64,000 bases of DNA. Source: Spirochaetia bacterium (GTDB lineage: Bacteria; Spirochaetota; Spirochaetia; UBA9216). Where the stretch lies: contig OY776510.1 of the NCBI GenBank assembly GCA_963675665.1, positions 4,512,001 through 4,576,000 on the forward strand, read 5' to 3'. Below, one piece after another: positions 1-16,310 of this stretch; positions within the stretch are counted from its first letter, which is position 1, and each line of letters opens with the position of its first letter. Below the pieces are notes generated by a model. It had not been told where the DNA came from. It was given only the letters and a program-made list of their open reading frames with translations, and searched no databases. A program made the translations under genes and the position numbers.

Positions 1-885
1 TTCATTCTTTTGTTCTTCAATAATTTTTCTTCTAATATTTTCCTCTGTTAAATTCGGTAGTTCTTCAATCCATTTCCTTATATCTTTAATTTCTTCATCA
101 TCTTTAATTATTTTCAAAATATATTCATACTCATTATCATGAATTGCTGTTGGTATTATATTCATTTCATCACCATATCCAGCACCAAAAATTGGGATCT
201 TTTTAATTGTTCCAAATTTTTTTATTAAGTAATCACTACCGTATCTGATTGTCAAAGTTGGATATCTTAATAGATGTAGAATTTCAATAAATCTGATGAT
301 CCTTTTAAATATATCTATCCATCTTTTAAATTCAATTTCTTCTAAATTATCAACTAAGACTTTTCTATGAGAAATAAGATTAGAATATGACTTGCCTTTT
401 GTATGTACATAATCAGATAGATCAATGTTTTTAATGTCATTAATTAGATCAAATTTTTCATTAAACTCTTTAATATATTCATTTTGTAATATTATCTTCC
501 AAAAATCTTTCCCTTTAAATGGTGTATTCTTCTTTGATTTTAACCATTCTTTAAAATCATTATTCTCAAATCCTTTATTAGTCCAATATATTGACATTAA
601 TCCAATATCTAATGATGTTCGTAAACTTATCATAGATTGTTTATAGAACCCTAATTTCATCAATTCATATGATACTTCCAATTCTTCATAACATTCATTT
701 AGAGAAAAATCTTCATCAGAAAAAAAGTCTGCAACATCCCTTTTGGGGATATTTTGACTTATTAAAAAAACAGACGACAGATATCCTTCAATCTTATTTT
801 TTAAGTTTTTTTCTTTCTCGATATTTTTAATAATCTCGTAATGTTTCTCATACTGTTCAAAAGTCTTTAATATTACTCTAATCAT
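1..885 (-). CDS. Integron cassette 9 protein, HEPN-like/DUF5677-like hypothetical, truncated by the window edge (>295 aa)
   Basis: ATG at 885 preceded by AAGGA. Read by hand as open to position 1 (MIRVILKTFEQYEKHY...SLRTSLDIG...DLSDYVHTKG...). Absent from the ORF track because no stop lies in the window. Helical, with an LSDYVH motif reminiscent of HEPN-like proteins. Confidence 0.7.
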   Translation of the reverse strand, partial: MIRVILKTFEQYEKHYEIIKNIEKEKNLKNKIEGYLSSVFLISQNIPKRDVADFFSDEDFSLNECYEELEVSYELMKLGFYKQSMISLRTSLDIGLMSIYWTNKGFENNDFKEWLKSKKNTPFKGKDFWKIILQNEYIKEFNEKFDLINDIKNIDLSDYVHTKGKSYSNLISHRKVLVDNLEEIEFKRWIDIFKRIIRFIEILHLLRYPTLTIRYGSDYLIKKFGTIKKIPIFGAGYGDEMNIIPTAIHDNEYEYILKIIKDDEEIKDIRKWIEELPNLTEENIRRKIIEEQKNE

Positions 886-935
886 ACAAATTCCTTAACA
901 ATATTTCATCACTACTGCTTTTAATCTATGCATAC

Positions 936-1078
936 ACATAACGACAATTTTAGCTGCCTGGCGGCGCGAGTCTTTCGAGCGCATTGGCGCGGTTTTAGAG
1001 CGCAGGCACGATCAGTGCCGTAGCGTCTCCGCTAAAACCGTGACAATAGCCAGGACTGCTACAAATTTCATGTTTTGT
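936..1078 (-). repeat. attC site, subtype A (belongs to the ORF-less cassette at position 8)
   Basis: On +, ACATAAC...GTTTTGT core boxes; paired arms aattt-tagctg-cctggc / gccagg-a-ctgcta-c-aaatt; 143 bp. Confidence 0.9.
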
Positions 1079-1560
1079 GTAACGACCCCATACCCACTAC
1101 TTTCTTTTATCTTAACAGTATCCTTTTTCTTACTTTGCCCATTCTTTACCCAGCGTTCTCGCTGGGTTCATCCCAATTAATCATACAACGATTTAACCTT
1201 TGCAGGTATTTTTATTTTTACACTATAACTTCTTCTCTGTTTCTTAGCATTTTACTTCTTCATTTCCGTCATATTCATTTTAAACATTTGGCCGCTAAAA
1301 TTTTATGCAGGTTAGCTGTGATTTTTTTGAGAAGCTTAAAATAGAACATAGATATAAATACGTTTCACGTCGGAGGTTATGGGAAACTATCGAAAACAGG
1401 ATGATTAACTCCATAAACTTCTTTATTTAACCTGCAAATTATTATTTTATCAAAGAACTGAATCAAATATTTTCTTTTTAATATATTTTTCACTTATGTG
1501 TCATTCTAAACGGGAACCGTATAAAATCTTTATTTTAGCCCAATTCTCGTTTACACAAAA
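942..1560 (-). mobile_element. ORF-less integron cassette A, copy at position 8
   Basis: Cassette start (G)TTTTGTGT is complementary to its own R'' ACACAAAAC. Near-identical to 1561-2180 and 12205-12823. Confidence 0.88.
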
Positions 1561-1697
1561 CGACAATTTTAGCTGCCTGGCGGCGCGAGTCTTTCGAGCG
1601 TATTGGCGCGGGTTTAGAGCGTAGGCACGATCAGTGCCGTAGCGTCTCCGCTAAAACCGTGACAATAGCCAGGACTGCTACAAATTTCATGTTTTGT
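1555..1697 (-). repeat. attC site, subtype A
   Basis: ACAAAAC...GTTTTGT; nearly identical to 936-1078. Confidence 0.9.
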
Positions 1698-2180
1698 GTA
1701 ACGACCCCATATCCAATACTTTCTTTTATCTTTATATTATTCCTTATCTTTTTTTCACTCTTCTTTACCCAGCGTTCTCGCTGGGTTCATCCCAATTAAT
1801 CATACAACGATTTCATCTTTGCAGGTATTTTTATTTCTTACACCATAACTACTGTTCTGTTTCTTAGCATTTTACTTTTTCATTTCCGTCATTTTCATTT
1901 TCAACATTTGGCCGCTAAAATTTTACGCAGGTTAGCTGTGATTTTTTTGAGAAGCTTAAAATAGAACATAGATACGAATACGTTTCACGTCGGAGGTTAT
2001 GGGAAACTATCGAAAACAGGATGATTGACTCCATAAACTTCTTTATTCAACCTGCAAATTATTATTTTATCAAAGAACTGAATCAAATATTTTCTTTTTA
2101 ATATGTTTTTCATTTATGTGTCATTCTAAACGGGAACCGTATAAAATCTTTATTTTAGCCCAATTCTCGTTTACACAAAA
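1561..2180 (-). mobile_element. ORF-less integron cassette A, copy at position 7
   Basis: Tandem, slightly diverged copy of 942-1560. Confidence 0.88.
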
Positions 2181-2310
2181 CGACGATTTGAGTAGCAAAA
2201 TTGTTCGGCGTCTTCGCCGAATTGGCGCGATTCTGGAACGAGCGATCAGCGAGTGTCTTTAGCCAGAATCGTGACAATAAATTTTGACTACTCCAAATCT
2301 CTTGTTATGT
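2175..2310 (-). repeat. attC site, subtype B
   Basis: ACAAAAC...GTTATGT; arms gattt-gagtag-caaaatt / aattttg-a-ctactc-c-aaatc; lies 4 bp beyond the stop of the YaaC-like gene. Confidence 0.9.
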
Positions 2311-2314
2311 ATAA

Positions 2315-3340
2315 TTATTTCCATCTATTTATTCCTGGTGGTAACACGGAATAATAATCATCAGTTAATGAATTTAATAAATAATTAGGGAATGAGCGGC
2401 TACCATAAGACAATGATTTTTTAAGTATAGCAGAATAATCTTCTTCATTTATCAAATTCATCCATTCTTTTGGGTAATATCTAACCATATTGCTTGTAGC
2501 ATAATAAATCAGATATTTAATCTCGTATTGTAAAAATTGATATCTTATGTTTTCTATTAATAGGGGAGAAGTAATAAATGATTCGTTTTTATACGATTTT
2601 TCATAAATAAAATCTGGTATATCTTTATATTCATCAAAAATAGCTTCTACGGTATATCCTTTTTCAAAAACATATTGTTTTTCACATAGTTTAAATTCAC
2701 TTAGACCTAAATTCTTATATCTTTGTTTATCTTTTTCAAAATTCTCTTTAACACCAGCCAATTGCAATTTTACTACATATTTATCATTTTCTTTTTTATA
2801 TCTAAAATCGTGTAAAGGATATGATTTATCATAAAACTGACATTGATCAAATACGTCTATATCCATTATCAATAAGTCATCCAAATCTATTACTTTCCCA
2901 ATTATATTTTCTATTGGTGTTTGTCTATTTTTACAAGATAATAATTCTATAAATGTACCTTTATTTTGTATCTTTATTAGCATTTTCATATCTTTAACGC
3001 TGCGAGTATTTTCAAGAGAGAATTTTAAACCATGACTTTTTAATAAGGTATTTGTCTTCTTTCCTAATTTCTTCATAATTAATATTTTTGAGAGTAGAGA
3101 AAATGAATAAAAATGCAATAATGGAGATGTTAAATATGAAGCATCCATTCCAGATCTAAAAAATTCATTACTTTGCTTATAAAATGTTTGTATTTTATTC
3201 ACATCATTTTTTGAATACTGTATTTTGCTCCCATTATTAAAGTATCGCTCAGTTACATTCAATCGCAGCAAATCCCAGATCTCATCTGATGGATTCTCAC
3301 TGACAATTAGATTTTTTCTTATTGAATTTTGTTTCAGCAC
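2315..3340 (-). CDS. YaaC-like protein (cassette 6)
   Basis: 341 aa; motifs PLLHFY, SHGL, GTF and SNMVRYYPKEW typical of the YaaC family; GTG start after GGAGAG. Confidence 0.7.
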   Translation of the reverse strand: MLKQNSIRKNLIVSENPSDEIWDLLRLNVTERYFNNGSKIQYSKNDVNKIQTFYKQSNEFFRSGMDASYLTSPLLHFYSFSLLSKILIMKKLGKKTNTLLKSHGLKFSLENTRSVKDMKMLIKIQNKGTFIELLSCKNRQTPIENIIGKVIDLDDLLIMDIDVFDQCQFYDKSYPLHDFRYKKENDKYVVKLQLAGVKENFEKDKQRYKNLGLSEFKLCEKQYVFEKGYTVEAIFDEYKDIPDFIYEKSYKNESFITSPLLIENIRYQFLQYEIKYLIYYATSNMVRYYPKEWMNLINEEDYSAILKKSLSYGSRSFPNYLLNSLTDDYYSVLPPGINRWK

Positions 3341-3487
3341 TTAAATCTCTCTCCATTCTTTTTACAATAATATCTTAATAATTCCTCTTGTATAATCCGA
3401 GCTGTTCATACTGATCATTGTGTACAATTTTTTAATAGCCACATATACAGAATTTCGTAACCGTAAAAACAACCGCACCCTGAAAAA

Positions 3488-4999
3488 TCAGTTAAGATAA
3501 ATATTCCAGGGAAGAAGCTCCTGCCAATCTTCACTGGACTTCATCAACGGAGCTTCGGTAAATACTTTTCTCAGATAAACATAAGGGTTGAGATCGTTTT
3601 GCTTTGCTGTTTCAACAAGTGAATAAATCCCGCAAGAACTCTCAGCACCTTTTGGGCTGCCGGCAAACAACCAGTTTTTCCTGCCCAACACAAACGGCCT
3701 GATAGCATTTTCACAGGCATTATTATCCGGAGTCAAATAAGGTGATTCAAGATAATTTACAAGTTTGCTCCATTGCCCAATTGTATATGATATCGCTTTT
3801 CCGAGTTCAGTCGAAGGAACAACATTATGCTGCCTTTTCTCAAGCCAGGAACTGAACTTGGCCAATAGCGGTTCTGCCTTCTTTTTTCTTTCTGCAAGAA
3901 ACTCGGGTTCACTTAAGTTTTTAGCTCTGAGTTCATTCTCTATCAAATACAGTTTCTGAATATATTTCAGCCCTTCAGCAGCACTGCCAGGTTTCTTGGA
4001 TACTCTTGATGCATCAAAGAATTTCCGTCTTGCATGAGCAAAACAACCGGCATGAATTATATCTGGATAATCTTTCAACGCTGTAACATATGCTTCATAA
4101 CCGTCAGTCTGAAGATAGCCGCTGAATCCGTCCAGAAAACTGCGAATATTCTTAGAACCCCTCGTTTCATGATATTCATATAGAATTGCAACTTGCCCCG
4201 GAGGCCCCCCTCGGGCAAGCCACATATAGGAGTTTCGAGTAGCAGGCCTATCCGGTTCATTGTGAACCTGTATTCTCGTTTCATCCATCTGCATAACCGA
4301 ACCGGTTTTCAGATGTTCTTTCATCAGTTCAAGCAGGATTATAAGAGCTTCATATGCCTGTCTTTGCCAGTTGCTCATATCCTGTCGGCTTATGCTGATC
4401 CCTATTCGCTCAAATCTCTTTTCCTGCCGGTAGAAAGGCAAATGATCTACATATTTATTTACAAGCAAAAATGCAAGGAGCTCGGGTGTTACTATGCTTT
4501 TGGGAAAGATTGTGGGAGCAGTCGGGGCTATCCGCACCGCAGGTTTATCTTCATCTCCGCTGCCTTCACAAGTCTTACAGGCATATTTGGGTCTGATGGT
4601 TCTTTCTACCCACATCTGTTCCGGTACAACTTTTATTCGTTCGGATATTTCTTCGCCTATTCTAACCAGTTCTGCTCCGCAAGCGCATTTCTTCTCTTCT
4701 TCGGGTATATCAATAAGGATTTCTTCACGGGGAAGATTCTCGTTTATCTTCTTTCGACCAGGTTTCTTTTTGGTATAGGATTCTACCTTCTGAGTTTCAG
4801 ATTCTTCTTCGGGAGCAATATCCGGTTCACTATCAAAAAGTAATATCTGAGCGGCTGTGTCTTTCTCGCTGGAACGATTATATTTCTTGAACAATTCAAG
4901 CTTGAAACGCTCTTCCAGCGCCTGGTATTTCGTTGCCCATTTTCGTTCAATATCTTTGATGTATTGCTGTACTTCTTCAGGAAGCTTTTCAACATCCAT
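3488..4999 (-). CDS. tnpC: IS66 transposase TnpC
   Basis: Zn finger CACG..CKTC; HLPFYRQ, MDET, QTDGY, CFAHARRKF and DNNACENAIR..GRKNWLF motifs. Confidence 0.96.
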   Translation of the reverse strand: MDVEKLPEEVQQYIKDIERKWATKYQALEERFKLELFKKYNRSSEKDTAAQILLFDSEPDIAPEEESETQKVESYTKKKPGRKKINENLPREEILIDIPEEEKKCACGAELVRIGEEISERIKVVPEQMWVERTIRPKYACKTCEGSGDEDKPAVRIAPTAPTIFPKSIVTPELLAFLLVNKYVDHLPFYRQEKRFERIGISISRQDMSNWQRQAYEALIILLELMKEHLKTGSVMQMDETRIQVHNEPDRPATRNSYMWLARGGPPGQVAILYEYHETRGSKNIRSFLDGFSGYLQTDGYEAYVTALKDYPDIIHAGCFAHARRKFFDASRVSKKPGSAAEGLKYIQKLYLIENELRAKNLSEPEFLAERKKKAEPLLAKFSSWLEKRQHNVVPSTELGKAISYTIGQWSKLVNYLESPYLTPDNNACENAIRPFVLGRKNWLFAGSPKGAESSCGIYSLVETAKQNDLNPYVYLRKVFTEAPLMKSSEDWQELLPWNIYLN

Positions 5000-5043
5000 A
5001 TCTTAAGTCTAGCATTTTTTGATCCGAGGGTAAATTCCTTATA

Positions 5044-5391
5044 CTATGTTATTTCAGAATATTTTAATTCTGTATGAGCATTCCAGAAATCTATACCCTT
5101 TAGAAGCATGTCAAGCTCAGTCTGCTTCAGCTCTATTGCATCCTGATTATTTTTCGGCCATGGAAAGCGATGTTTTTCAAGTTTCTTCTGCCATAAACAA
5201 AACCCGTTTTTATCCCAATAGAGAGCTTTCAAATTCCGTCTCTCTTTATTGCAAAATAAAAATAGATTGCCTGATAGTGGATCTGATTCAAGCTCATCAG
5301 CTACTATCATAGATAAGCCATTTATTGCTTTTCTCATATCGGTACTGCCTGGTTTTATGAATATCTTTATCTTGGAGAAATCAGGAAACAC
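5044..5391 (-). CDS. tnpB: IS66 accessory protein TnpB
   Basis: TDMRKAINGL, LFLFCN, LYWDKNGF and KKLE motifs; GTG start at 5391 is likelier than 5427. Confidence 0.93.
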   Translation of the reverse strand: MFPDFSKIKIFIKPGSTDMRKAINGLSMIVADELESDPLSGNLFLFCNKERRNLKALYWDKNGFCLWQKKLEKHRFPWPKNNQDAIELKQTELDMLLKGIDFWNAHTELKYSEIT

Positions 5392-5695
5392 TTTTCGTTT
5401 CCACCAGGTCCATCGCTGCCATTGCATCTTCTCTGCTGAATCCAGGCTGCAGGATTATTTTCCAACCACCGTGTTCGAGGATTATATTTTTCTTCACAGC
5501 AGGTATTTCAAGCATTGGCAATTTTACGAAACCCGGTTTTTGTGTTCTCTGTTTCTGCCGTTCTTGTTTGGTCCAGTTATAAAACGTGGTTGGCCGTATA
5601 TCATTCTCACGGCAGAACTGACCTCCGGACATCCCGGACTCACGCCATTCTGTGAGATAGTCTGCTCGCTCTTTAGCGGTATATTGCTTGTTCAT
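5381..5695 (-). CDS. tnpA: IS66 accessory protein TnpA
   Basis: WRESGMSGGQFCREN..TFYNW HTH motif; first ORF of the IS, with a GGAGG RBS. Confidence 0.9.
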   Translation of the reverse strand: MNKQYTAKERADYLTEWRESGMSGGQFCRENDIRPTTFYNWTKQERQKQRTQKPGFVKLPMLEIPAVKKNIILEHGGWKIILQPGFSREDAMAAMDLVETKSVS

Positions 5696-6004
5696 TATTT
5701 CCTCCAGCTTCCCGGAGTTTAATAGATTTCAGAGTTCAACATAAGGTGCGGTTGTTTTGACGGTTACAGAATTTCTCGTATTTCTATCATTTTAAGACTG
5801 TTTTCGGCCCTTGGGAACTATATTTTATAAATAATTCTATCATGCTCAACTTGATATAGACAATTGTTTCGTAATTCCTATAATTCTTTTAGGAGTATCA
5901 TCTTAATCTGGATATCATCTTTTCTCTTTTTCTTAATAAATCACAGCTGTACACTATTCTATTAGAAATTTGTTGATCAAGTTACAAGCTGTTACTCTAT
6001 TTAT

Positions 6005-6140
6005 ACATAACGACGATTTGAGTAGCAAAATTGTTCGGCGTCTTCGCCGAATTGGCGCGATTCTGGAGTGAGCGATCAGCGAATGTCTTTAGCCAGAATC
6101 GTGACAATAAATTTTGACTACTCCAAATCTCTTGTTAAAT
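6005..6140 (-). repeat. attC site, subtype B
   Basis: ACATAAC...GTTAAAT; almost identical to 2175-2310. Confidence 0.9.
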
Positions 6141-6211
6141 GCCGTTTCTTACCAGACCGAACGACGGAGTCGAGGTCTGGTATTAATATAAATTACAATA
6201 TAATCTAATAT

Positions 6212-8452
6212 TCATGATCTGCTAAAAAGATCATGTATATCAGAAATATAGTTCACTCCTTTATAGTCACCATCATCGTCAGGTCTATAATTATCTAAGA
6301 AACTATCAACCATCCCATCGATGTCTATTTCCGATTCAATTAACTCTTTTAAATCTATATCAATTTCTCCTATTTCGGTATTTGATACTAGAAATAACGA
6401 TTCATCTAATTTCTCTTCAAAATAATTTACTATCCCAGTGTAATCAACATTTAAATCTTCACGAAAATCGATATAATTTCCTATCTCAATTTCATTTTCT
6501 AAATCACTTATTTCATATGATAAGTATTCACCAATAATTTCTTTCCTAAAATCAATAAAATCTTGATCATATTGATCTAATTTTAAATAGATTTCTGTGA
6601 TAAGATTTATTTCCTTATATGAAATGCTTTCACCACTACTAATAATCTCAATTAATTTATTTGTTGTGAGATTGTTTAAATTTATAAAAATCTCATTAAT
6701 AAGAAAAAGAAGCTTTGATATTTCAGAGATACCAGCACAATCAGCTAAAACTGCATCTATCATATTTGACACAGCTTCCGTATCATTATTTATTTCATAA
6801 TAAATAAAACATAAATATATTGTATAATTACTTTCAAAATCAGTATTATAATTCCCAAATACATTTTCTATGATTGTGCAATATTGTTCATATTTAATAA
6901 GTTCACTTTTGTAAATTGAGTATATTTGTTCTAATGATTTTATAGTATTTAATGATTGCATAATTAATATAATTTCATCAATTTCACCTACATAATTTCT
7001 AAGAATATAATCTGATATAGATGGATTAAACACTGTATAATCAATTATTCCAGCACTCATATTTTTAACAATCATAGATTTTGTAGACAATTTTATTATC
7101 GTATCAAATCTATAATCTATTGTTTTTGATTCTTCGATCTTTTTTAGACTACAATATTCTTTATATGCTTTTTTTAAATCTTCTTCTCCAATTTTACCAC
7201 CATTAAATACTACCAAGAATACAACACTTCTTATATAAATATTGCTTTGCACATCAAGATATTTCTCCCAAATATCTGCAGGATTATTCAATCTATCAAT
7301 AATTGAAATCCAATAATTTACAAGATCAGTATCGATCCTATCAATATCAGTAATAAACTCAATTAACCTAGGATTATAATTCCTATGTAAAATTACTTTC
7401 ATATAATTCGAATCTTTATAAAATTCATCAATGTAATCATCACCTAAATTACTAAACCAAATATGATTATATAAAATTCGGGCTTTATCCATTATAGATA
7501 AATCATTCATAGTCATTAAGAATTCATTCTTGTTTAATTTTTTGTCATTAAATACTGGACTAACATGTAAACCTTTATTTATTATGTTTGTTCTTGAAGT
7601 TAAAATAAAGATTTTATTCTTGGCCCTATTAATTCTTTCAATAAAATTCATTATATGCGTATCTTTTCTATTTTCTATTGCTTCAAAATAATTACTACCT
7701 AGAAAATCATCGAAATAAAATATTTGTTTGGAATCTTTATCAAATAAATCCTCCCCTTCTTTAACACCTTCTTCAATTGCTATAAACTCGTAATCATGTG
7801 CTAAATAATGCAAGCATAAATTATTTGCTAAGGTTGTCTTACCAATTCCTGGTTCTCCAGAAATTATTATCACCTTATTTCTTTTTAAATGTTCTAATGC
7901 ACGATAATGATTTTCAGTATAAACATATTTATTAGAATTTAACTTAATATTTTCAATAATAAACTCGCTACGACCTTTAATTGCATTTTTAAGAATTCTT
8001 GATAATACTGTTGAGCTATTAATCCATAATTTATAGTGCTTTTCTTCGATTTGTTTATATTCACTTAAGAAATCATTAAGATCCTCACAACCCCAAATAT
8101 CTGATTCAATTTTTATATAAGGAGCAAAAATTGACTTTATTTTAGTTTTATTCGCTCTTGATAAGGGTACAGATGTTACAAATATATATTTAGCTGGTTT
8201 TAGTTTCTTAACTTTTAAAGCCTCTTTGTGTTCTAAATCATATAATAATTTTTTTAATCCGGATTGATAATAGTGTTTACATTGTAAGATTTCTTCTTTC
8301 CTATCAATGTTAAAATATCGTCCATCAACCCCTGCATCTTTGCCTGGTTTAAAACGTTCTATTCGCTTGTTTGTAACTTTAGTAACTAAATCACAAACAA
8401 GATATTCAAATTCTTTATCGTTTAAACTGCTAAAGGTATAATCCATATCCAA
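6212..8452 (-). CDS. Restriction-endonuclease (Mrr-like) fused to nSTAND3 P-loop NTPase, probable anti-phage protein (cassette 5)
   Basis: N-terminal FE..V.DL..GKDAGVDG..QCKHY (PD-D/ExK-like); Walker A GEPGIGKT; Walker B FYFDDFLG; ILTSR and YNPRLIEF; acidic C-terminus. Confidence 0.82.
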   Translation of the reverse strand: MDMDYTFSSLNDKEFEYLVCDLVTKVTNKRIERFKPGKDAGVDGRYFNIDRKEEILQCKHYYQSGLKKLLYDLEHKEALKVKKLKPAKYIFVTSVPLSRANKTKIKSIFAPYIKIESDIWGCEDLNDFLSEYKQIEEKHYKLWINSSTVLSRILKNAIKGRSEFIIENIKLNSNKYVYTENHYRALEHLKRNKVIIISGEPGIGKTTLANNLCLHYLAHDYEFIAIEEGVKEGEDLFDKDSKQIFYFDDFLGSNYFEAIENRKDTHIMNFIERINRAKNKIFILTSRTNIINKGLHVSPVFNDKKLNKNEFLMTMNDLSIMDKARILYNHIWFSNLGDDYIDEFYKDSNYMKVILHRNYNPRLIEFITDIDRIDTDLVNYWISIIDRLNNPADIWEKYLDVQSNIYIRSVVFLVVFNGGKIGEEDLKKAYKEYCSLKKIEESKTIDYRFDTIIKLSTKSMIVKNMSAGIIDYTVFNPSISDYILRNYVGEIDEIILIMQSLNTIKSLEQIYSIYKSELIKYEQYCTIIENVFGNYNTDFESNYTIYLCFIYYEINNDTEAVSNMIDAVLADCAGISEISKLLFLINEIFINLNNLTTNKLIEIISSGESISYKEINLITEIYLKLDQYDQDFIDFRKEIIGEYLSYEISDLENEIEIGNYIDFREDLNVDYTGIVNYFEEKLDESLFLVSNTEIGEIDIDLKELIESEIDIDGMVDSFLDNYRPDDDGDYKGVNYISDIHDLFSRS

Positions 8453-8575
8453 TTAAATTCCTATTTATAATAATACATTCTTAGCCCGTCGGCCGGAGGT
8501 CCGGGCTATTTCTTACTAATTTTACACCCAGCAACAGAAATATCCTAACATTTTTATTATTCTCCCATTTCGTGC

Positions 8576-8714
8576 ATTTAACGACGATTTGAGTAGCGAA
8601 ACCGGCCGAGTCTTCGAGGATTGGCGCAGTTCTGGAACGCAGCGCGATCAGCGCGGAGTGTCTTTAGCCAGAACTGTGACAAAGGTTTTGACTACTCCAA
8701 ATCTCTTGTTATAC
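8576..8714 (-). repeat. attC site, subtype B
   Basis: ATTTAAC...GTTATAC with the same arm architecture. Confidence 0.9.
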
Positions 8715-8721
8715 GGATTTT

Positions 8722-9012
8722 CTATACTTTTTCTAATAATTTCCCAGATACATATTTATGCAATATCATTGATACTAGGGTTTGGTATGGTAAACCTTCC
8801 TCCATTGCTTTTATCTTTAAATTCTTTAAATCTCTTTCTGATATTCTTATATTCATTCTTTTATCTTTTTTCATTGTAGCTTCAGCATATTTTTTTGCCT
8901 GGAGCTTGTATTCTTCATTTTCTTCTATCTCTTCCCATTCACCATTTTCAAGTGAAATTATTAAATCGCGTTCTTCTTCATCTATCGGAGTAAATATTTT
9001 TTTCTCTTTCAT
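8722..9012 (-). CDS. CopG/RHH-type antitoxin (BrnA-like), cassette 4
   Basis: KDKRMNIRIS..DL..LK..A.EEGLPYQTL motif; overlaps the toxin stop (ATGA). Confidence 0.85.
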   Translation of the reverse strand: MKEKKIFTPIDEEERDLIISLENGEWEEIEENEEYKLQAKKYAEATMKKDKRMNIRISERDLKNLKIKAMEEGLPYQTLVSMILHKYVSGKLLEKV

Positions 9013-9296
9013 TCCTTTCCTCCATTCTTCAATAATTTCTTAGTATATTCCCTACTCGGGTATATTGTTTTTAGAAATATCTCTTTATCTTCTTTATTTT
9101 CAACAAAAGGCACCACATAAATATAATCATTATAGTTAATTAGATAAATTTTTTGATTTCCATATTTTTCTTCATTTGGATTTTTTAATACCTTTACAAC
9201 CCTTCCTTCAGAAATACACAATATAATTTCTTCAAATGATATATTGCGTTGTTCCTTCAGAATTTCATTCTTTTCATCATTCCAATTATAGGTCAT
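9009..9296 (-). CDS. BrnT-like toxin, cassette 4
   Basis: YNWNDEKNEILKEQRNISFEEI...FLKTIYPSR; ATG at 9296 preferred over TTG at 9332. Confidence 0.85.
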   Translation of the reverse strand: MTYNWNDEKNEILKEQRNISFEEIILCISEGRVVKVLKNPNEEKYGNQKIYLINYNDYIYVVPFVENKEDKEIFLKTIYPSREYTKKLLKNGGKE

Positions 9297-9302
9297 GATA
9301 TA

Positions 9303-9332
9303 AAGATAATCCCCCAGTGTGCCTTTTGTCAA
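9303..9332 (-). promoter_or_regulatory. Sigma70-like promoter of the TA cassette (probably leaderless)
   Basis: TTGACA-N18-TATCTT, then 6 nt to the ATG; no SD. Confidence 0.6.
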
Positions 9333-9433
9333 TACACTATATTTCTTAAATTTTTACGAAGTCTCGATTTAACCACGATTGAACCCCAAAACCGTGAATC
9401 CTATCAATATTATTTTATCTAATTCTTAATTCC

Positions 9434-9567
9434 GTATAACGACGAAATCAGTAGCGAAACCGGCCGAGGTCTTCCGAGGATTGGCGCGGTTCTGGAATGA
9501 GCGATCAGCGAATGTCTCCGCCAGAACCGTGTCAAAGGTTTTGACTACTGCATTTCTTTTGTTATGT
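9434..9567 (-). repeat. attC site, subtype B
   Basis: GTATAAC...GTTATGT; covarying arms gaaat-cagtag / ctactg-c-atttc. Confidence 0.9.
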
Positions 9568-9575
9568 AGAGACTT

Positions 9576-10295
9576 CTAATTTTTTATATAATTTTCAATT
9601 ATTTCTTTCATTAAATCGAAGATAGAAACATCCTTTTCAGAAGCGATTTTAATCAAACTTGAATAGTTTTCAATTTCATCGCCTTGCCAGACCAAAGACA
9701 AACGCCTTTCATTTATTAGTGCAATATGCTCATATTCTTTAGGATCTGCCCAATAACACTTTTTACATATTTCTTCATCCTTTTCATTATTCCAATTATG
9801 ACAATGCTCACAAGACCATGATTTCGCTCTATTACATGAAGCACACAATAAAAGGAAATCATTAATATTTTCTACTTCATAATCATCACCAGAAACTTCA
9901 AAAGGCACTTTATGATCGATTTGAAAGTATCTTATTTCAAGATGAGTGTTACAAACAGCACAAGTTCCTTCATATTTTGCAAATAAATCATTTTTTAATT
10001 TTTTAGAAAAGTTCCTTCTACCTTTCTTATTCTTATTATCAATTTTAGATAAATCACCAAATTTATAAGCTGCTATATTCCTGCCATCAGATGATTTTAC
10101 CTTATATGTTTCTAACGGAATTCCTAATTCTCTAACATCTCGTGCAGCGCGCGGGGGATGATTATAACCATATTTTTTTTCTAATTGTTCAGTTGTAATA
10201 AAACCATTTTCAATAATATGGTCAAGAACCACTCTTGCTCTCTTATTTCTAACATTTCTTATAATTTCTTTTAATTCATCAGGAAAATCTTTCAT
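9576..10295 (-). CDS. HNH type II restriction endonuclease, SphI-like (cassette 3)
   Basis: GYNHPPRAARD; CAVC..QIDHKVP..LCASCNRAKSWSCEHC..C..CYWA. Resembles R.SphI as recalled from memory, not searched. Confidence 0.78.
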   Translation of the reverse strand: MKDFPDELKEIIRNVRNKRARVVLDHIIENGFITTEQLEKKYGYNHPPRAARDVRELGIPLETYKVKSSDGRNIAAYKFGDLSKIDNKNKKGRRNFSKKLKNDLFAKYEGTCAVCNTHLEIRYFQIDHKVPFEVSGDDYEVENINDFLLLCASCNRAKSWSCEHCHNWNNEKDEEICKKCYWADPKEYEHIALINERRLSLVWQGDEIENYSSLIKIASEKDVSIFDLMKEIIENYIKN

Positions 10296-10298
10296 ATC

Positions 10299-11237
10299 TC
10301 ATCCAAATAGCGTCATTTGCTTATTTTCTTTATAAATACTTTTAAAAATAGTATCTTCAATTTCTAATTTATCTATATTAGAGAAAATGTTTTCAGATAA
10401 ATAAATTGATTCATAGGTCATATCAGTGTTATTATTTAGTGTAGCTTGAGATGAACGCCCCACCTCTAATTCTATTCTTTTTAGTTTCAAATGTTCAGGT
10501 AATAATTCTCCATATTTTTTATTACCTAATCTTCCATCATAACTAATAATGTATTTAATATTTTTATCATTTAATATCTCTAAAGATTCTATAAATTCGT
10601 TTCGACCTAATCCATTCATATATCTATTATCTCTTTTATTAGAAACGCCTTCATATGGAGGGTCCATATAAACAAGATCCTTTTCATTTGCTTTAAAAAT
10701 AATATCTCTATAATCGGTACTAAAAATTTCAGTTTTTCCATTCAAAATCGAAGAAGCATTCAATATTTCATTTGCCATTCTCTTTGGATGTTTTCCTTTT
10801 CTTCGATTATCAGGGCTTTGGTTAAATTCGCCTTTTGTATTATATCGTACAGCAGCTTTAACACATCTAGCTAATAAATATAGAAGATATCCAGACTCCT
10901 TTGTCTCATTAAATTTATCTCGAATTAAATTATAATAATTTTTTTCATCACCTAATTGTTCATTCCAGTAATATGAATATTTTTCGATTATATCATTTGG
11001 ATTATTTATTATAGCGCCCCATAAATCCATCAACGGTTTGTTAATATCATTGATTATTACTTTATCAACTTTATTATAATAAAGCGATGCAATACTTATT
11101 GCAGCTGATCCAGCAAATGGCTCTATCAATGAATGTATGTTGTTTGGGTAGTAATCTATTATAGTTTGTGCTAACGCTCTTTTACTACCCTGATATGGTA
11201 TAGGTTGTGGCATCTTCATAATCTTATTATATCCCAT
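10299..11237 (-). CDS. DNA adenine methyltransferase (Dam/D12 class), partner of the HNH REase
   Basis: PIPYQGSKR, EPFAGS, INDIN and YMDPPY motifs; real start may be the ATG at 11219. Confidence 0.92.
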   Translation of the reverse strand: MGYNKIMKMPQPIPYQGSKRALAQTIIDYYPNNIHSLIEPFAGSAAISIASLYYNKVDKVIINDINKPLMDLWGAIINNPNDIIEKYSYYWNEQLGDEKNYYNLIRDKFNETKESGYLLYLLARCVKAAVRYNTKGEFNQSPDNRRKGKHPKRMANEILNASSILNGKTEIFSTDYRDIIFKANEKDLVYMDPPYEGVSNKRDNRYMNGLGRNEFIESLEILNDKNIKYIISYDGRLGNKKYGELLPEHLKLKRIELEVGRSSQATLNNNTDMTYESIYLSENIFSNIDKLEIEDTIFKSIYKENKQMTLFG

Positions 11238-11294
11238 ATTTTACTATTTTGCACTACACAAATGTTAACCTAATACATTTTCTCCAAGTATTCT

Positions 11295-11433
11295 ACATAA
11301 CGACGAAATAAGTAGCGAAATCGTTCCGCGTCTTCGCGGAATTGGCGCGATTCTGGAGAGAGGGCCATTGCCCGAACGTCTTTAGCCAGAATCGTGACAA
11401 TAGATTTTGACTACTTCATTTCTCTTGTTATCA
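11295..11433 (-). repeat. attC site, subtype B
   Basis: ACATAAC...GTTATCA; arms gaaat-aagtag / ctactt-c-atttc. Confidence 0.9.
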
Positions 11434-11567
11434 AGAGCTTTTTTCTTAATATTCTTTTCTTCTTTCTTTATCTCTTCTATTTCTTATTTCCCACTTTTTC
11501 GCTTCCACTGGGGTTATTATACTCCTTGTTTCACTTCCATTGGGATTTAAAATTTCTTATTTCTTTC

Positions 11568-12020
11568 TTAATATCTAGAATTCTCTTTTTTCCATTCCAT
11601 TATATATTCTTGTTCTCCAGTATCATTATCAATTGATTCTGATATTATTCTAAAATCTTTTTTCTTATAAAATTCTATGCTTTTTACATTCTTTTTATAT
11701 ACTTTTAATTGTATTCTCTTTCGAATTTCTTTCACATGATTTATTAATTCACTACCAATTCCTAAACCTTGCATATTTGTCCTTATAAAGATTGCCGCAA
11801 GATATTCATCCATCATGGATACAAATCCCAAAAGTGTATTATTATTTTTAGCGATGTAAGTTTCAGACATTGGAATATATTTTTCTTTCATCTGCGATTT
11901 ATTTTCATTCCAATATTCATCCGGAATAAAATCATGTGCTTTTATTGATGACTCATACCAAATTTCAATTATTTCATCTAAATCCTTATCACTTAATTTT
12001 TGCATTCTTATATCTTTCAA
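11568..12020 (-). CDS. GNAT N-acetyltransferase (YiaC/YjaB-like), cassette 2
   Basis: AHDFIPDEYW, MQGLGIGSELI and LKVYKKN..SIEFY motifs. Confidence 0.88.
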   Translation of the reverse strand: MKDIRMQKLSDKDLDEIIEIWYESSIKAHDFIPDEYWNENKSQMKEKYIPMSETYIAKNNNTLLGFVSMMDEYLAAIFIRTNMQGLGIGSELINHVKEIRKRIQLKVYKKNVKSIEFYKKKDFRIISESIDNDTGEQEYIMEWKKENSRY

Positions 12021-12198
12021 ATAATTTCCTCATGAAATCTTTTTTATTTACGAAGTCTCTATTCCCCGCCCTAATGCTCGCTCCCACTGGTGTTTTCCTT
12101 TCAGTTTAACTTCCACTAGATTCTTCCGATTCGTTCCCCAAACGTTACTCATTTCCATTACTTTTATTCAATCATTTTTCAACTACAATTCTGGTTCT

Positions 12199-12340
12199 TG
12201 ATAACGACAATTTTAGCTGCCTGGCGGCGCGAGTCTTTCGAGCACATTGGCGTGATTCTGGAGTGGAGCGCGATCAGCGCGAAACGTCTTTAGCCAGAAT
12301 CATGACAATAGCCAGGACTGCTACAAATTTCATGTTTTGT
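12199..12340 (-). repeat. attC site, subtype A
   Basis: TGATAAC...GTTTTGT; outer arms identical to 936-1078, inner stem closer to subtype B. Confidence 0.9.
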
Positions 12341-12823
12341 GTAACGGCCCCATACTCACTACTTTCATCTACATTCATAATTATCCTTTTTCTTACTTTG
12401 CCCCTTCTTTACCCAGCGTTCTCGCTGGGTTCATCCCAATTAATCATACAACGATTTCCTCTTTGTAGGTATTTTTATTTTTAAACAATAACTACTGTTC
12501 TGTTTCTTAACATTTTACTTCTTCATTTCCGTAATATTCATTTTAAACATTTGGCCGCTAAAATTTTACGCAGGTTAGCTGTGATTTTTTTGAGAAGCTT
12601 AAAATAGGACATAGATACGAATACGTTTCACGTCGGAGGTTATGGGAAACTATCGAAAACAGGATGATTAACTCCATAAACTTCTTTATTCAACCTGCAA
12701 ATTATTGTTCTATCAAAGAACTAAATCAAATATTTTCTTTTTAATATGTTTTTCACTTATGTGTCATTTTAAACGGGAACCGTATAAAATCTTTATTTTA
12801 GCCTAATTCTCTTTTACACAAAA
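12205..12823 (-). mobile_element. ORF-less integron cassette A, first position in the array
   Basis: Third copy of the cassette; abuts attI. Confidence 0.88.
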
Positions 12824-12860
12824 CATATTATATTAAGTTGTTTTACCTATAAAAACTACC
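12818..12860 (-). other. attI site (crossover G/TT at 12824/12823)
   Basis: Cassette homology ends at ...AATATAATATG/TTTTGTG with no attC beyond it; lies between the array and the intI start. Its outer extent is a guess. Confidence 0.7.
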
Positions 12861-13040
12861 AGCTTATCCTATCATTCCAGTATATAACACCGATATTTCC
12901 CTTGATAAACGGCTGAGGTAATAAAACTTTACATACTTTTCTATATAACTCAGTATAACTTATCTTATAAGTAGTTTAATCCAGTTTCTTGAGAATTTGA
13001 AATTCTTTTATCTAATCGATAAATTTTTAAATCAGAAAAT

Positions 13041-14318
13041 ATGAACTCAGGTATTAAATATATGATGAAGAATAGAATTGATGATACTGTGATTTTGGAC
13101 CGGTTCAAGACTCATTTAATTAACAACACAGGTATGGAACAAAGATATATTGAACATTATCTTAAATGGATTGCGCTGTATCTGAATGAACAGGTAAAGT
13201 CCACTAAACAGTTAAGTGCAATAGCATTCAGTAATGATTTGGCGCTGAGTAATAAATATGCTGACTAGCAGATAAAACAAGCAAAAACAGCAGTTAATTT
13301 GTTCATTCAGTTCCGAAGTTCAAATTATTCCATTCCCAAACCGATAATAAAAGCCGATGTTTGCTGGGAACAATTAAAAGAACAAAATCGGAGACAACTT
13401 CGATTGATGCACAAGTCACTTCAAACGGAAAAAACATATCAGCGCTGGCTTGTTGATTTTATTACATATACAGAGACGTCTGCTGATTTGATATCAGCAG
13501 ACGATCTAAAGCGTTACCTTACCTATCTCGCGGTTAAAAGAAAGGTTGCGCAAGCTACTCAAAAGCAGGCATTCAATGCTCTTCTTTTCTTTTACCGACA
13601 TATACTTCACATACGTATTGAAAATCTTGATGGAACAATTATGTCAAAACAATCTTCAAGGCTTCCTCTGGTTTTAACCAGGAATGAAGTAAAACGAGTT
13701 CTATACCAGTTGAAGGATCCATATTTACTAATGGCTGAGCTGATATATGGAAGCGGGATACGATTGAATGAATGCCTGAATTTAAGAATTAAAGATCTTG
13801 ATTTTGAACGGGGAAGCTTGTTGATACTATCCGGTAAAGGAAATAAAGACAGACTGACTCTTATGCCGGAAAAAATAAAGACTAGAATTTCAAAACATCT
13901 CAATTGTGTCAAATCTTTGTATGAAGCTGATCGTCAGAATAATATCTCGGGCGTTATGCTTCCTGATGCCCTGTGTAGAAAATATCCGAATGCATCAACA
14001 ACCTGGTCTTGGTTCTGGGTATTTCCTTCTCACAAACTTTCTATAGATCCCTATTCAAATACGGTTCGAAGATTTCATATATATCCGAGTACTTTGCAAA
14101 AGGCTTTTAAGACAGCAGTTTCCTCCTCCGGCATCACCAAAAATGCAAGCATTCATACTTTGCGGCATAGTTTTGCCACCAGCCTGATTGAAGCAGGATA
14201 TGACATAAGGACTATTCAGGAGCTCCTCGGGCATTCGGATCTTAGTACCACAATGATCTATACTCATGTAGCGAATAAAAACAAACTTGGCGTGAAGAGC
14301 CCGTTTGACAGTCTCTGA
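13041..14318 (+). pseudogene. intI: Integron integrase IntI with N-terminal extension, interrupted by an in-frame TAG at 13266-13268; the downstream 339-aa portion is intact
   Basis: ORFs 13041-13268 and 13299-14318 share a frame (KYAD*QIKQA). Tyrosine-recombinase residues GIRLNE, GKGNK, HTLRHSFAT, LGH and TMIYTH are present, as is the IntI-specific insert LPDALCRKYPNA..W.WFWVFPS. Confidence 0.9.
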
Positions 14319-14322
14319 TTCT

Positions 14323-14353
14323 TAAAATCCCCTTAACGTATAAGGGGATTTTA
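14323..14353. terminator. Bidirectional intrinsic terminator
   Basis: TAAAATCCCCTTA-acgta-TAAGGGGATTTTA between convergent genes. Confidence 0.8.
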
Positions 14354-14371
14354 GATTTTTTTTAAGATTAA

Positions 14372-15736
14372 CTATAACTGCTTTATAATCTGTTCAGAAG
14401 CCAGGACAAGACCATTTGCTGCAGGAAAGAATGACTGATAGGGCTGTGAAGAATAACTCAATGCGCTCAAATCTTCAATTGTTGAATCCTTTTGTATTGC
14501 AAATGTGATTAAATCAATCACCGATGTTACCGGTTCGCCGCTGACAATCTGACCGCCTATTATTTTCCCTGTCCGTTTATCAACAATAATTTTTAAATTC
14601 ATCTTTTTGGCTTCAGGCATAATGGGAAACTGGGTAGTTACTTCACTGTATCCTGAAATAACATCATAACCGGCTTTTAATGCAGCAGCCTCACTCAACC
14701 CGGTTCCTCCGACAAAATACCTGCCAACTTTAGTCGCCGCCCCGTTATAGAATCCGGGATATCTTCTGGTTCCTCCAAGAAGATTAAAACCGAGCACTTT
14801 TGCCATCGGTACAGCATTGGTTGCCAGCTTTCCGGGATGTACTCCGCAGGTTATACCGCTTTTAAATTGAGTGCAATCTCCAACTGCATATACATCAGCC
14901 ATTGATGTTTCCATTCTGTCATTTACAATAATGCCGCCGCGGCCCAGTTCAATATCGCTCTTTTCAACCAGTTCAACCTGGGGTTTCATTCCGGCAGCAA
15001 AAATTACTATTCCGTCATGAGTAAAATTTTCAGCGATTGTGCATTCGTCTTTTGCATCAAAATGAATAGTTTTCCCATTATCCAGATTAACATGTTCAAC
15101 CCATTCCTTGCCATCAAGAGAAATAACTTTTGCATTCAGATGCAGTTTAACTCCTTTCTGAATTATTTCCGCTTCTATATCATCGGTCATCTCTTTATCA
15201 ACAAGATTGGGCAGAACCGAGCTTCCCATATCTACCAGATGAACTTCAAGACCTGCATCGGTTAAGGCTTGCGCAAGCTCAATTCCTATTGCTCCGGCAC
15301 CAACTACAACCGCTTTTTTTAAACCTTCGGAAATCATCGTTTTGATTGCTTTAAGATCCGTTTCGGTTTTAAACCCGCTCACACCTTTTAACTCATTTCC
15401 GGGAACCGGCGGGATTACCGGCGTTGCTCCTGTAGCAAGAACAAGTTTTTTATAAGTAAGTTCAGTATTGGTACTGAGCTTTACCGTTTTATTATTAAAA
15501 TCTATTTCAACAACTTCAGCTCTAATCAACTCTGCTCCGCTGCCTGTCACAAGGGTATCTTTTTTAAGGGTTTTTTCAGTATCAATTAACCCTTCAATCA
15601 CATACGGCATTGCACAATAGATCATAGAATAATCTTCCGGTCTTATAACTGCCATCTTCAATTTTCCGCCAAGCATTTTGGCAAGTGTTATACCTGCCGG
15701 ACCGCCGCCGATTACGATTAATTCAAAGTAACTCAT
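14372..15736 (-). CDS. FAD-dependent pyridine nucleotide-disulfide oxidoreductase (NADH oxidase/CoA-disulfide reductase family)
   Basis: GGGPAG, YCAMPY (redox Cys), LATGA, GAGAIG and YAVGDC. Confidence 0.88.
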   Translation of the reverse strand: MSYFELIVIGGGPAGITLAKMLGGKLKMAVIRPEDYSMIYCAMPYVIEGLIDTEKTLKKDTLVTGSGAELIRAEVVEIDFNNKTVKLSTNTELTYKKLVLATGATPVIPPVPGNELKGVSGFKTETDLKAIKTMISEGLKKAVVVGAGAIGIELAQALTDAGLEVHLVDMGSSVLPNLVDKEMTDDIEAEIIQKGVKLHLNAKVISLDGKEWVEHVNLDNGKTIHFDAKDECTIAENFTHDGIVIFAAGMKPQVELVEKSDIELGRGGIIVNDRMETSMADVYAVGDCTQFKSGITCGVHPGKLATNAVPMAKVLGFNLLGGTRRYPGFYNGAATKVGRYFVGGTGLSEAAALKAGYDVISGYSEVTTQFPIMPEAKKMNLKIIVDKRTGKIIGGQIVSGEPVTSVIDLITFAIQKDSTIEDLSALSYSSQPYQSFFPAANGLVLASEQIIKQL

Positions 15737-15911
15737 TTAATCTCTCCTTGATATTTTTTCCTGTCACTAATTTATTAAGGGATTTTATGTAAATAAAGGT
15801 AATGCACATATGCTCATAAGTCAAGCTCTATATATAATTATTTTTATATAAAATATTTGACACATTTTGAATAATAACGTATATTAATTTTTATTATATA
15901 GGAGTTTATTT

Positions 15912-16310
15912 ATGTTGGTAGTTGGAATTATTGCTGGTGTTATCATTCTTTTTTTCGGGTTTCAATACCTGACAATACTCAGAATGAAATTAAAAAAGGG
16001 AAAGCCCGCCCCAAACCTTTCCGGCGTGTACGGAAAAGCCGTAAATAACAAAAAAACATCAGTCTTTTATTTTTACAGCCCCCATTGCGGCGCCTGCAAG
16101 GTTATGACTCCGGTTGTCGAACGTTATACTAAAAACAACCCGCGGTGCTTTAAAATTGATATCTCGAAAGACAGTTCTACAGCTTCCGCTTTCGGGATAA
16201 TGGCAACACCGTCTACTGCGGTTATAGAAAACGGAGTGATCAAGGATTTCATCGTCGGCGCAAAACCTCAATCGGACCTGGTTCAGCTTCTGGAGCAGAC
16301 AAGGCTCTGA
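15912..16310 (+). CDS. Membrane-anchored thioredoxin-family protein
   Basis: N-terminal TM helix, CGAC motif, cis-Pro ATP motif. Confidence 0.85.
   Translation: MLVVGIIAGVIILFFGFQYLTILRMKLKKGKPAPNLSGVYGKAVNNKKTSVFYFYSPHCGACKVMTPVVERYTKNNPRCFKIDISKDSSTASAFGIMATPSTAVIENGVIKDFIVGAKPQSDLVQLLEQTRL

Follow-up and report, generated by a model that had tools for sequence, protein, structure and literature searches.

The DNA analyzed here is a stretch of 64,000 nt (the window) from a Spirochaetia bacterium (contig OY776510.1 of assembly GCA_963675665.1, forward-strand positions 4,512,001 to 4,576,000). The left 12.8 kb of the window is the attI-proximal end of an integron whose array goes on to the left of the window. 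A cassette of about 620 bp without a recognizable gene is found three times in this segment, and this gene-less cassette is the subject of the present work. The integrase gene, intI, is on the + strand and the cassettes run leftward on the − strand, which is the canonical divergent orientation of intI. Three genes for FlaA (PF04620) score above the cut-off in the genome, and this fits a spirochaete host. The features on which the argument depends are listed below.

942..1560, − strand: gene-less cassette copy F, array position 8, 619 bp; body at about 1079-1560, attC at about 942-1078, boundary at the G|TT cores.
942..1078, − strand: attC of copy F (R'' ACAAAAC ... R' G), Y-shaped when the bottom (+) strand is folded; equivalents at about 1561-1697 and 12205-12340.
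1148..1167, no strand assigned: perfect 8-bp GC-rich hairpin ACCCAGCG-N4-CGCTGGGT (also 1767-1786 and 12411-12430); z −7.3 for a 41-nt window.
1300..1442, + strand: "central block" (also about 1920-2062 and 12563-12705), with a three-way junction fold and a probable deletion junction, 1350/1351, inside.
1430..1460, − strand: island 1, CAGTTCTTTGATARAAYNAWARTTTGCAGGT (also 2050-2080 and 12693-12723), the best-conserved stretch between the family and cassette k12.
1561..2180, − strand: gene-less cassette copy G, array position 7, 620 bp, in tandem with F.
12205..12823, − strand: gene-less cassette copy H, array position 1, abutting attI.
12824..13040, no strand assigned: attI and the intergenic region from the first cassette to intI; first cassette junction at 12823/12824.
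13299..14318, + strand: integron integrase gene intI (possible TTG start at 13299); the match of the product to TIGR02249 is complete, with 392 bits (cut-off 265) over profile positions 4-315 of 315; the frame extends upstream to 13041 across an in-frame TAG at 13266-13268.

An attC profile built from the eight attC sites of the window was searched against the genome and identified 54 sites, of which 51 are in the array, all in one orientation, between genome positions 4417887 and 4524351 (about 107 kb). Three solitary attC-like sites are found far from the integron, at genome positions 3519119, 3522802, and 3922822. By BLAST, the genome contains eight copies of the gene-less cassette (A to H), in slots 1, 7, 8, 17, 22, 34, 37, and 45 of the 51. 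Five of the eight are to the left of the window, and copy A, in slot 45, is 96 kb from copy H. The family is the most repeated cassette type in the array (8/51 slots); three types of coding cassette are present in two copies each, with pair identities of 88.9%, 89.4%, and 99.9%. A separate single-linkage cluster comprises seven cassettes of differing sizes, five of which (slots k13, k25, k27, k40, and k46, to the left of the window) share an antisense-strand open reading frame (ORF) of 385 amino acids; this ORF probably belongs to another insertion sequence that spread inside the array.

Each copy of the gene-less cassette has a single attC by the profile, with junctions reading ...AAC|G on the + strand and crossover at G|TT. 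The 5' end is always TTTTGTG, giving an R' of G|TTTTGT, and this bears out the atypical GTTTTGT core noted in a preliminary description of the window. That description had reported three near-identical cassettes of about 620 bp, one at position 1 next to attI and two in tandem at positions 7-8. The coordinates, the identity (621 alignment columns, mean column identity 96%), and the placement on the attC map were all reproduced; the count was too low, five of the eight copies being outside the window. The neighbors of the copies are unrelated cassettes and the copy boundaries are exact. Seven copies (the short form) lack a stretch of 147 nt that copy D has, with an imperfect 11-nt direct repeat at its flanks. 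The repeats are one family of gene-less, attC-bounded cassettes, and the spirochaete integron that carries them is chromosomal and sedentary. Only one further cassette of the 51 lacks a sense ORF of appreciable size, namely k12 (741 bp, genome 4508510-4509250, to the left of the window).

The attC sites of the family are about 137 nt long, and their R'' sequence, ACAAAAC, is complementary to the 5' TTTTGT of the same cassette. When all 51 attC sites were folded as DNA, one common Y-shaped architecture was obtained, with R''/R' and L''/L' paired. An attC subtype exclusive to the family, as proposed initially, exists inside the window only. The "subtype-A" outer stem, CCTGGC/GCCAGG, is found in 14 of the 51 attC sites, and six of these belong to ORF-bearing cassettes (k09, k10, k27, k36, k48, and k51), all outside the window. 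There are two attC haplotypes inside the family, with compensating stem changes, and the attC of k51 is 92-93% identical to those of copies A, B, C, and H, which form one of the two. The family-specific feature is the core pair ACAAAAC / G|TTTTGT; k12 has GTAAAAC / TTTTAC. The mean bottom-strand folding energy was −33.2 kcal/mol for the family and −33.7 kcal/mol for the other sites (Mann-Whitney p 0.65), and, to the extent that folding energy is informative, a more efficient attC was rejected as the cause of the amplification. Most attC sites are of a common type with a conserved side hairpin (CGGCGAAGACGCCG then CAATTTTG, for example at window 2204-2221), which scored as terminator-like on the array strand; the attC of the gene-less family has a degenerate version of it, without a T run.

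On the array (−) strand, the longest ORFs with a start codon are 38-39 amino acids (at most 117 bp). Those on the + strand are 57-96 amino acids among the copies (89, 57, and 73 in the window copies, with 89 in F and 73 in H). They start in or beside the attC, their length and frame vary by copy, and this pyrimidine-rich strand is poor in stop codons. Gene-less cassettes have been defined by the lack of an ORF >150 bp and of a BLASTX match (Boucher 2006, PMC1382264) or by the lack of an ORF >210 bp (Blanco 2024, PMC11014356). The array strand of the family is within the length limit; the + strand has the ORFs of 57-96 amino acids described above. No Pfam family scored above its cut-off, whether with the seven frames taken from the short form or with the 22 from D and k12; the sub-threshold listings for these 29 frames (E up to 1-10) were YnaM, Cellulose_synt, and DUF5363 (16.9 vs 25.8 bits). 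A word-indexed protein database search, restricted to the best + strand frame, found no match. Rfam 15, run over window positions 1-16000 with E up to 1, returned only a chance small nucleolar RNA match at 615-697, outside the cassettes. A group IIC-attC intron remnant and a riboswitch were rejected because neither gave an Rfam covariance-model match. The earlier statements that the cassette has no credible ORF and is not a recognizable member of a named family are consistent with these searches.

The copies differ from one another to very different extents. Only 1 of 621 alignment columns differs between A and H, and the corresponding numbers are 7 for A-B, 9 for E-F, 35 for F-G, 59 for A-F, and 48-86 for D against the others. 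Copy C differs from A in 6 of 400 body columns and has an A-like attC center, and it is F-like in columns 401-482. Copy D differs from F in 42 of the first 400 columns and in only 6 of the remaining 221, which form the 3' part. The copies are recombination mosaics of each other. Since their neighbors are unrelated and their boundaries exact, copying would have proceeded cassette by cassette, and this points to the integrase. Such copy-and-paste would involve excision at attC and reinsertion at attI without loss of the donor copy. The best example would be H at attI and A at slot 45, a pair that looks recent. That a noncoding cassette family was spread here by the integrase is, in our judgment, very likely.

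Full-length alignment of k12 with copy D gave 59.7% identity over 745 columns (E 2e-19), and k12 shares the TTTT-type 5' end with the family. No other copy of the 147 nt specific to D was found in the genome. These 147 nt are collinear with k12, with a local score of 16 vs 12.0 ± 1.7 for shuffled sequences (36 of 1000 shuffles reach it). Given the single genomic copy and the collinear match in k12, a deletion in the short form is the more likely event, and a mobile insertion into D (a miniature inverted-repeat transposable element) was rejected on the same grounds. The 619-bp form would have arisen from a form of about 760 bp by a 147-bp deletion between short direct repeats, and we regard it with moderate confidence as a probable deletion derivative. 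Where D has private changes, comparison with k12 places four on the side of D, five on the side of the short form, and three with neither. The deletion junction is at F coordinate 1350/1351, within the central block. Diversity among the short copies climbs with distance from this junction, as follows.

Columns 121-270 (block): 1.3-3.3%.
Columns 1-120: about 6%.
Columns 271-400: 8.5%.
Columns 401-482: 13-23%.
attC center: 38%.

The clustering of differences beside attC that had been described for the window copies is also found among seven copies, with 25 variable sites in alignment columns 401-480. All of the short copies would descend from one deletion event, their outer parts exchanging with older alleles, and the part that flanks the junction could not have exchanged without regaining the 147 nt. 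Because the block spans the junction and diversity rises away from it, neutral linkage offers an explanation for the low diversity there. The low diversity of the block may thus reflect linkage to the junction and is not by itself a sign of selection.

Two body segments are clearly conserved between the distant relatives. Island 1 is found in k12 at the same offset (88 vs 101 nt); 27 of its 31 nt are identical there, 16 of them in a row. Over these 16 nt the identity holds at all codon positions in every frame, with no wobble-type variation, which argues for constraint at the nucleotide level. Island 1 holds a TTGATA box that resembles a −35 element. The second segment is the GC-rich hairpin, which had been called invariant and perfect; it is perfect in six of the eight copies only, and the variants in C and D both give a G-U pair on the + strand. 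The stem is kept in k12, about 70 nt before R'', with a different loop and followed by GGGGC. Since only island 1 and this hairpin are clearly conserved in the body between distant relatives, they are the candidate functional sites. The hairpin was also considered as the relic of a second, degenerate attC in a fused cassette, and this was rejected when an nhmmer search of the bodies with E up to 100 gave no match.

The BLAST comparison with other genomes that had been suggested for the cassette found the eight copies in its own genome and none in 60 relatives and 10 other genomes of the order, where only chance matches of 29-37 nt were obtained. The island 1 pattern, searched with up to three mismatches in 301 genomes of the class, gave nine sites, all in its own genome and none in the other 300. 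The cassette had no match in plasmid and phage collections, and an exact 22-mer was absent from two large contig collections (genome and metagenome). Matches to a 19-mer at four loci were rejected as chance, the similarity ending at 19-23 nt. The cassette is present at 90-99% identity in a related strain (run X7) and in two marine metagenome runs (X4 and X5), and the same intI region occurs in all three with about 98% identity. None of the 13 runs listed is an RNA run. Among the collections searched, the family thus appears to be restricted to one species group. In run X7 the cassette contig has a depth of 43 and the intI contig a depth of 8; although depth is not copy number, the collapse of several copies into one contig would fit this ratio. 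In runs X4, X5, and X7 the intI/attI contig stops exactly at the junction of attI and the first cassette (window 12822), and in run X3 it extends 28 nt into the cassette; the first cassette may be variable within those samples.

The family belongs to the known class of paralogous gene-less integron cassettes and is itself new. Noncoding cassettes of Vibrio are found in 6 copies in strain DAT722 and in 45 and 34 copies in two strains of V. vulnificus; they are typically paralogous, lineage-restricted, and without BLASTX match, and were considered to be either selfish or beneficial (PMC1382264). The spirochaete family resembles these in being attC-bounded, in having no credible ORF and no BLASTX-type match, in reaching several to many copies per array, in having homologues only in close relatives or none, and in full-length conservation with suspected gene conversion (Boucher 2006). 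It differs from them in its host, in a different attC family (about 140 nt and Y-shaped), in showing no similarity outside the species group, and in the existence of a long form and a deletion-derived short form. Sense promoter activity has been reported for most of 29-30 gene-less Vibrio cassettes of 491-666 bp, and in silico promoter calls fail to predict the activity of a cassette (PMC11014356). At 619 bp, AT-rich, gene-less, and in a large sedentary array, the present family is similar to these. ORF-less cassettes of oral Treponema also show promoter activity, and one of them, TMB4, is in first position, as is one copy here (Tansirichaiya 2019, PMC6557892). The integron of Treponema denticola is inverted (PMC11014356), unlike the spirochaete integron described here, with its divergent intI. 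In the family described here, consensus promoter scans were no better than shuffles.

The preliminary description had left a wide choice, between a selected noncoding element (an RNA, a decoy, or a promoter/insulator) and a selfish cassette. The explanation that we favor, with a probability of roughly 0.45 for the whole, is that a noncoding cassette is copied and pasted by the integrase and that island 1 and the hairpin would act in cis on transcription. By analogy with the gene-less cassettes of Vibrio and Treponema, the cassette could be an internal promoter or a regulator-binding module that acts on neighboring cassettes; the cis-acting role taken by itself is a tentative proposal. Several observations weigh against this explanation. 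The family attC is no more stable than the others, and no reason for the top amplification is seen. Gene conversion could also make A and H near-identical. The polarity of the deletion depends on a modest match, as good as that of 36 of 1000 shuffles. As a −10 element the TTGATA box has only a poor partner, TTGAAT or TTAAAT, where k12 has TCTAAG instead, sigma-70-like matches numbered 6 vs 4.1 ± 2.2 in shuffles (6 vs 5.2 in a second scan), and island 1 is equally compatible with a protein-binding or an RNA motif.

A close second to the cis-acting transcriptional account is that the cassette is a purely selfish or neutral passenger. It would have no function for the cell, would be cheap to carry because it encodes nothing, and would be copied by the integrase and accumulate; its conservation would then be the product of recent copying, gene conversion, and linkage to the deletion junction. 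The amplification relative to the two-copy coding types is consistent with this, as are the very recent pairs (A-H and E-F), the mosaic structure of the copies, the growth of diversity away from the junction, and the confinement to one species group; selfish elements are one of the two possibilities given for the Vibrio families (Boucher 2006, PMC1382264). However, the lineage is gene-less down to the 60% identity of k12 and D, and yet island 1 and the hairpin stem are kept in place, which is hard to explain without constraint at these positions. In addition, the attC folding energies provide no mechanism for preferential copying. We consider a passenger without any function somewhat less probable than integrase-mediated spread combined with a transcriptional role in cis.

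A considerably less likely alternative is that the + strand, antisense to the array and in the direction of intI, encodes a structured small RNA with a three-way junction closed by GCAGGTT/AACCTGC, which would act in trans or on the integron. The preliminary description had proposed this fold, with its helices, for a nearly invariant central block. We reproduced the fold: on the + strand the block (1300-1442) has an energy of −33.7 kcal/mol (z −3.52, 0 of 200 shuffles as good) compared with z −2.23 on the − strand, and the whole 482-nt body has z −1.95 on the + strand and +0.16 on the − strand. Several G-U pairs exist on the + strand only, and both hairpin variants give a G-U pair on that strand. 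The closing helix is preceded, at a distance of 6 nt, by a TAAAAT box and is followed by a U-rich tract. The block has seven variable sites among the seven short copies, and four of these fall at unpaired positions or allow a wobble pair on the + strand; the remaining three affect the pairs 1306-1436, 1314-1428, and 1322-1345, which are standard pairs only in E and F or in E, F, and G.

Against a genomic background the fold is only moderately unusual. A scan of 143-nt windows over positions 1-7441, with attC sites and the family left out and 30 shuffles per window, gave 194 windows with a mean z of −0.14 and a standard deviation of 1.04; two windows were at z <= −3 and one at z <= −3.5. Within the family, windows scored low only when they contained the GC hairpin (−3.2 to −5.6, both strands) or were exactly aligned to the block, and the block-aligned window in copy G had z −2.83 on the + strand and −2.16 on the − strand. 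Since two of 194 background windows reach z <= −3 and the block was picked by hand, the fold is unusual but not extreme.

Comparison with a few diverged sequences (copy D, k12, and one metagenome variant) gives weaker evidence than the folding energies. Of 15 block changes in copy D, eight break pairs and three preserve them as wobbles, and the metagenome variant X5 has paired positions changed without compensation. In favor of the RNA, helix P3 can be aligned in k12 by hand fitting, with eight pairs the same, three kept with changes (two of them double), and two broken; against it, helices P1 and P2 have no counterpart in k12, and the orthologue of the arm of the closing helix (P0) pairs over about 4 bp in the full-length alignment, judged by eye. 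The k12 sequence CTAACCTAT had been considered as the arm of the closing helix; the full-length alignment shows that it is non-orthologous, and its two apparently kept P0 wobble pairs were discounted. The equivalent region of k12 folds weakly (z −1.75, 17 of 200 shuffles as good). Because the block spans the probable deletion junction, a distance of about 275 nt or more separates the arms in the two long forms (D and k12). There is also no Rfam match. A precedent exists in sRNA-Xcc1, a trans-acting small RNA from an ORF-less integron cassette of Xanthomonas campestris (cited in PMC6557892); the family described here is likewise ORF-less and could carry an RNA gene, but it has no sequence or Rfam match, and its candidate fold is not conserved in its diverged relatives. 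With linkage to the junction available for the low diversity, and with the fold not kept in D and k12, the step from the invariance and foldability of the block to an RNA structure under selection is not supported, and neither is a conserved structured RNA.

A related possibility, of slightly lower probability still, is a mobile regulatory RNA gene, in which a + strand RNA with P3 and the GC hairpin would read toward, or act on, intI from the copy at attI. If this were true, a copy landed at attI would tune cassette shuffling or silence the array from inside. An influence of a first-position ORF-less cassette on intI has been discussed for promoters and not for a structured RNA (PMC6557892).

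It is improbable that the family is a decayed protein-coding cassette. Truncated genes are found in a few gene-less Vibrio cassettes (Blanco 2024, PMC11014356), and the long-form bodies of about 600 nt would have room for a protein of about 200 amino acids. However, none of the 29 stop-free frames from the short form, D, and k12 matches a Pfam family above cut-off, the best frame has no homologous protein, and the lengths of the indels that separate k12 from D are not multiples of three, with no frame preferentially conserved by eye. On the array strand, ORF1 (38 amino acids) is interrupted by a TAG in copies A, H, and D, the last of which has lost 2 bp of it as well, and k12 keeps none of the frames.

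Toxin-antitoxin cassettes stabilize long arrays in Vibrio. A small protein or type I toxin-antitoxin-like module here, made of ORF2 (39 amino acids, array strand, 1414 to 1295) and an overlapping antisense RNA and serving to stabilize the array, is the least probable reading, for although the frame is open in all seven short copies, inside the conserved block, and the copies are spread along the array from slot 1 to slot 45, chance alone at 35% G+C should give open frames of this length, about 40 codons (an estimated 3 or so per cassette), the changes are mostly nonsynonymous (L3S, S20L, P24S, and V37I vs one or two synonymous), k12 has neither the start codon nor the frame, which is also cut short in D, the hydrophobic run of the peptide is only 9 residues, and Pfam gives only a sub-threshold YnaM (E 0.21, 11.7 bits vs a cut-off of 27).

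The remaining content of the array was also recorded. Cassette k06 (window 2315-6010) contains a YaaC-like gene (2315-3340) and an inserted IS66-family element with a transposase at 3488-4999 and an IS66 Orf2-like TnpB at 5044-5427. The attI-proximal cassettes (window 6212-11237 and beyond) have a defense- and addiction-like gene content: a 746-amino acid Mrr-like nuclease plus nSTAND3 NTPase at 6212-8452, a BrnT/CopG-antitoxin-like pair at 8722-9332, an HNH protein with a D12-class adenine methyltransferase at 9576-11237, and a GNAT acetyltransferase at 11568-12020. To the left of the window, a 29.6-kb stretch of the array (genome 4447882-4477451) is without attC, so a large insertion is likely there. 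The intI frame is open for 75 codons upstream of its TAG (13041-13268), and neither Pfam nor NCBIfam gives a match for this stretch. It could be a small ORF of its own, an N-terminal extension that was lost, or a part reached by read-through; the integrase profile is complete downstream of the TAG.

The family extends to a spirochaete integron, with another attC family, the pattern found in Vibrio, in which the noncoding cassettes are the most paralogous and the most lineage-restricted. It also provides a caution for scans of such elements, as repeated cassettes that were copied recently, recombine, and share a deletion can show low diversity and a good fold even when no RNA structure is under selection. 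The cassettes form a natural series in which to ask what such elements must retain, and it leads from a 60%-identical relative to a long form, to an amplified deletion form, and to near-identical recent copies. Across this series only the 31-nt island and one hairpin survive.

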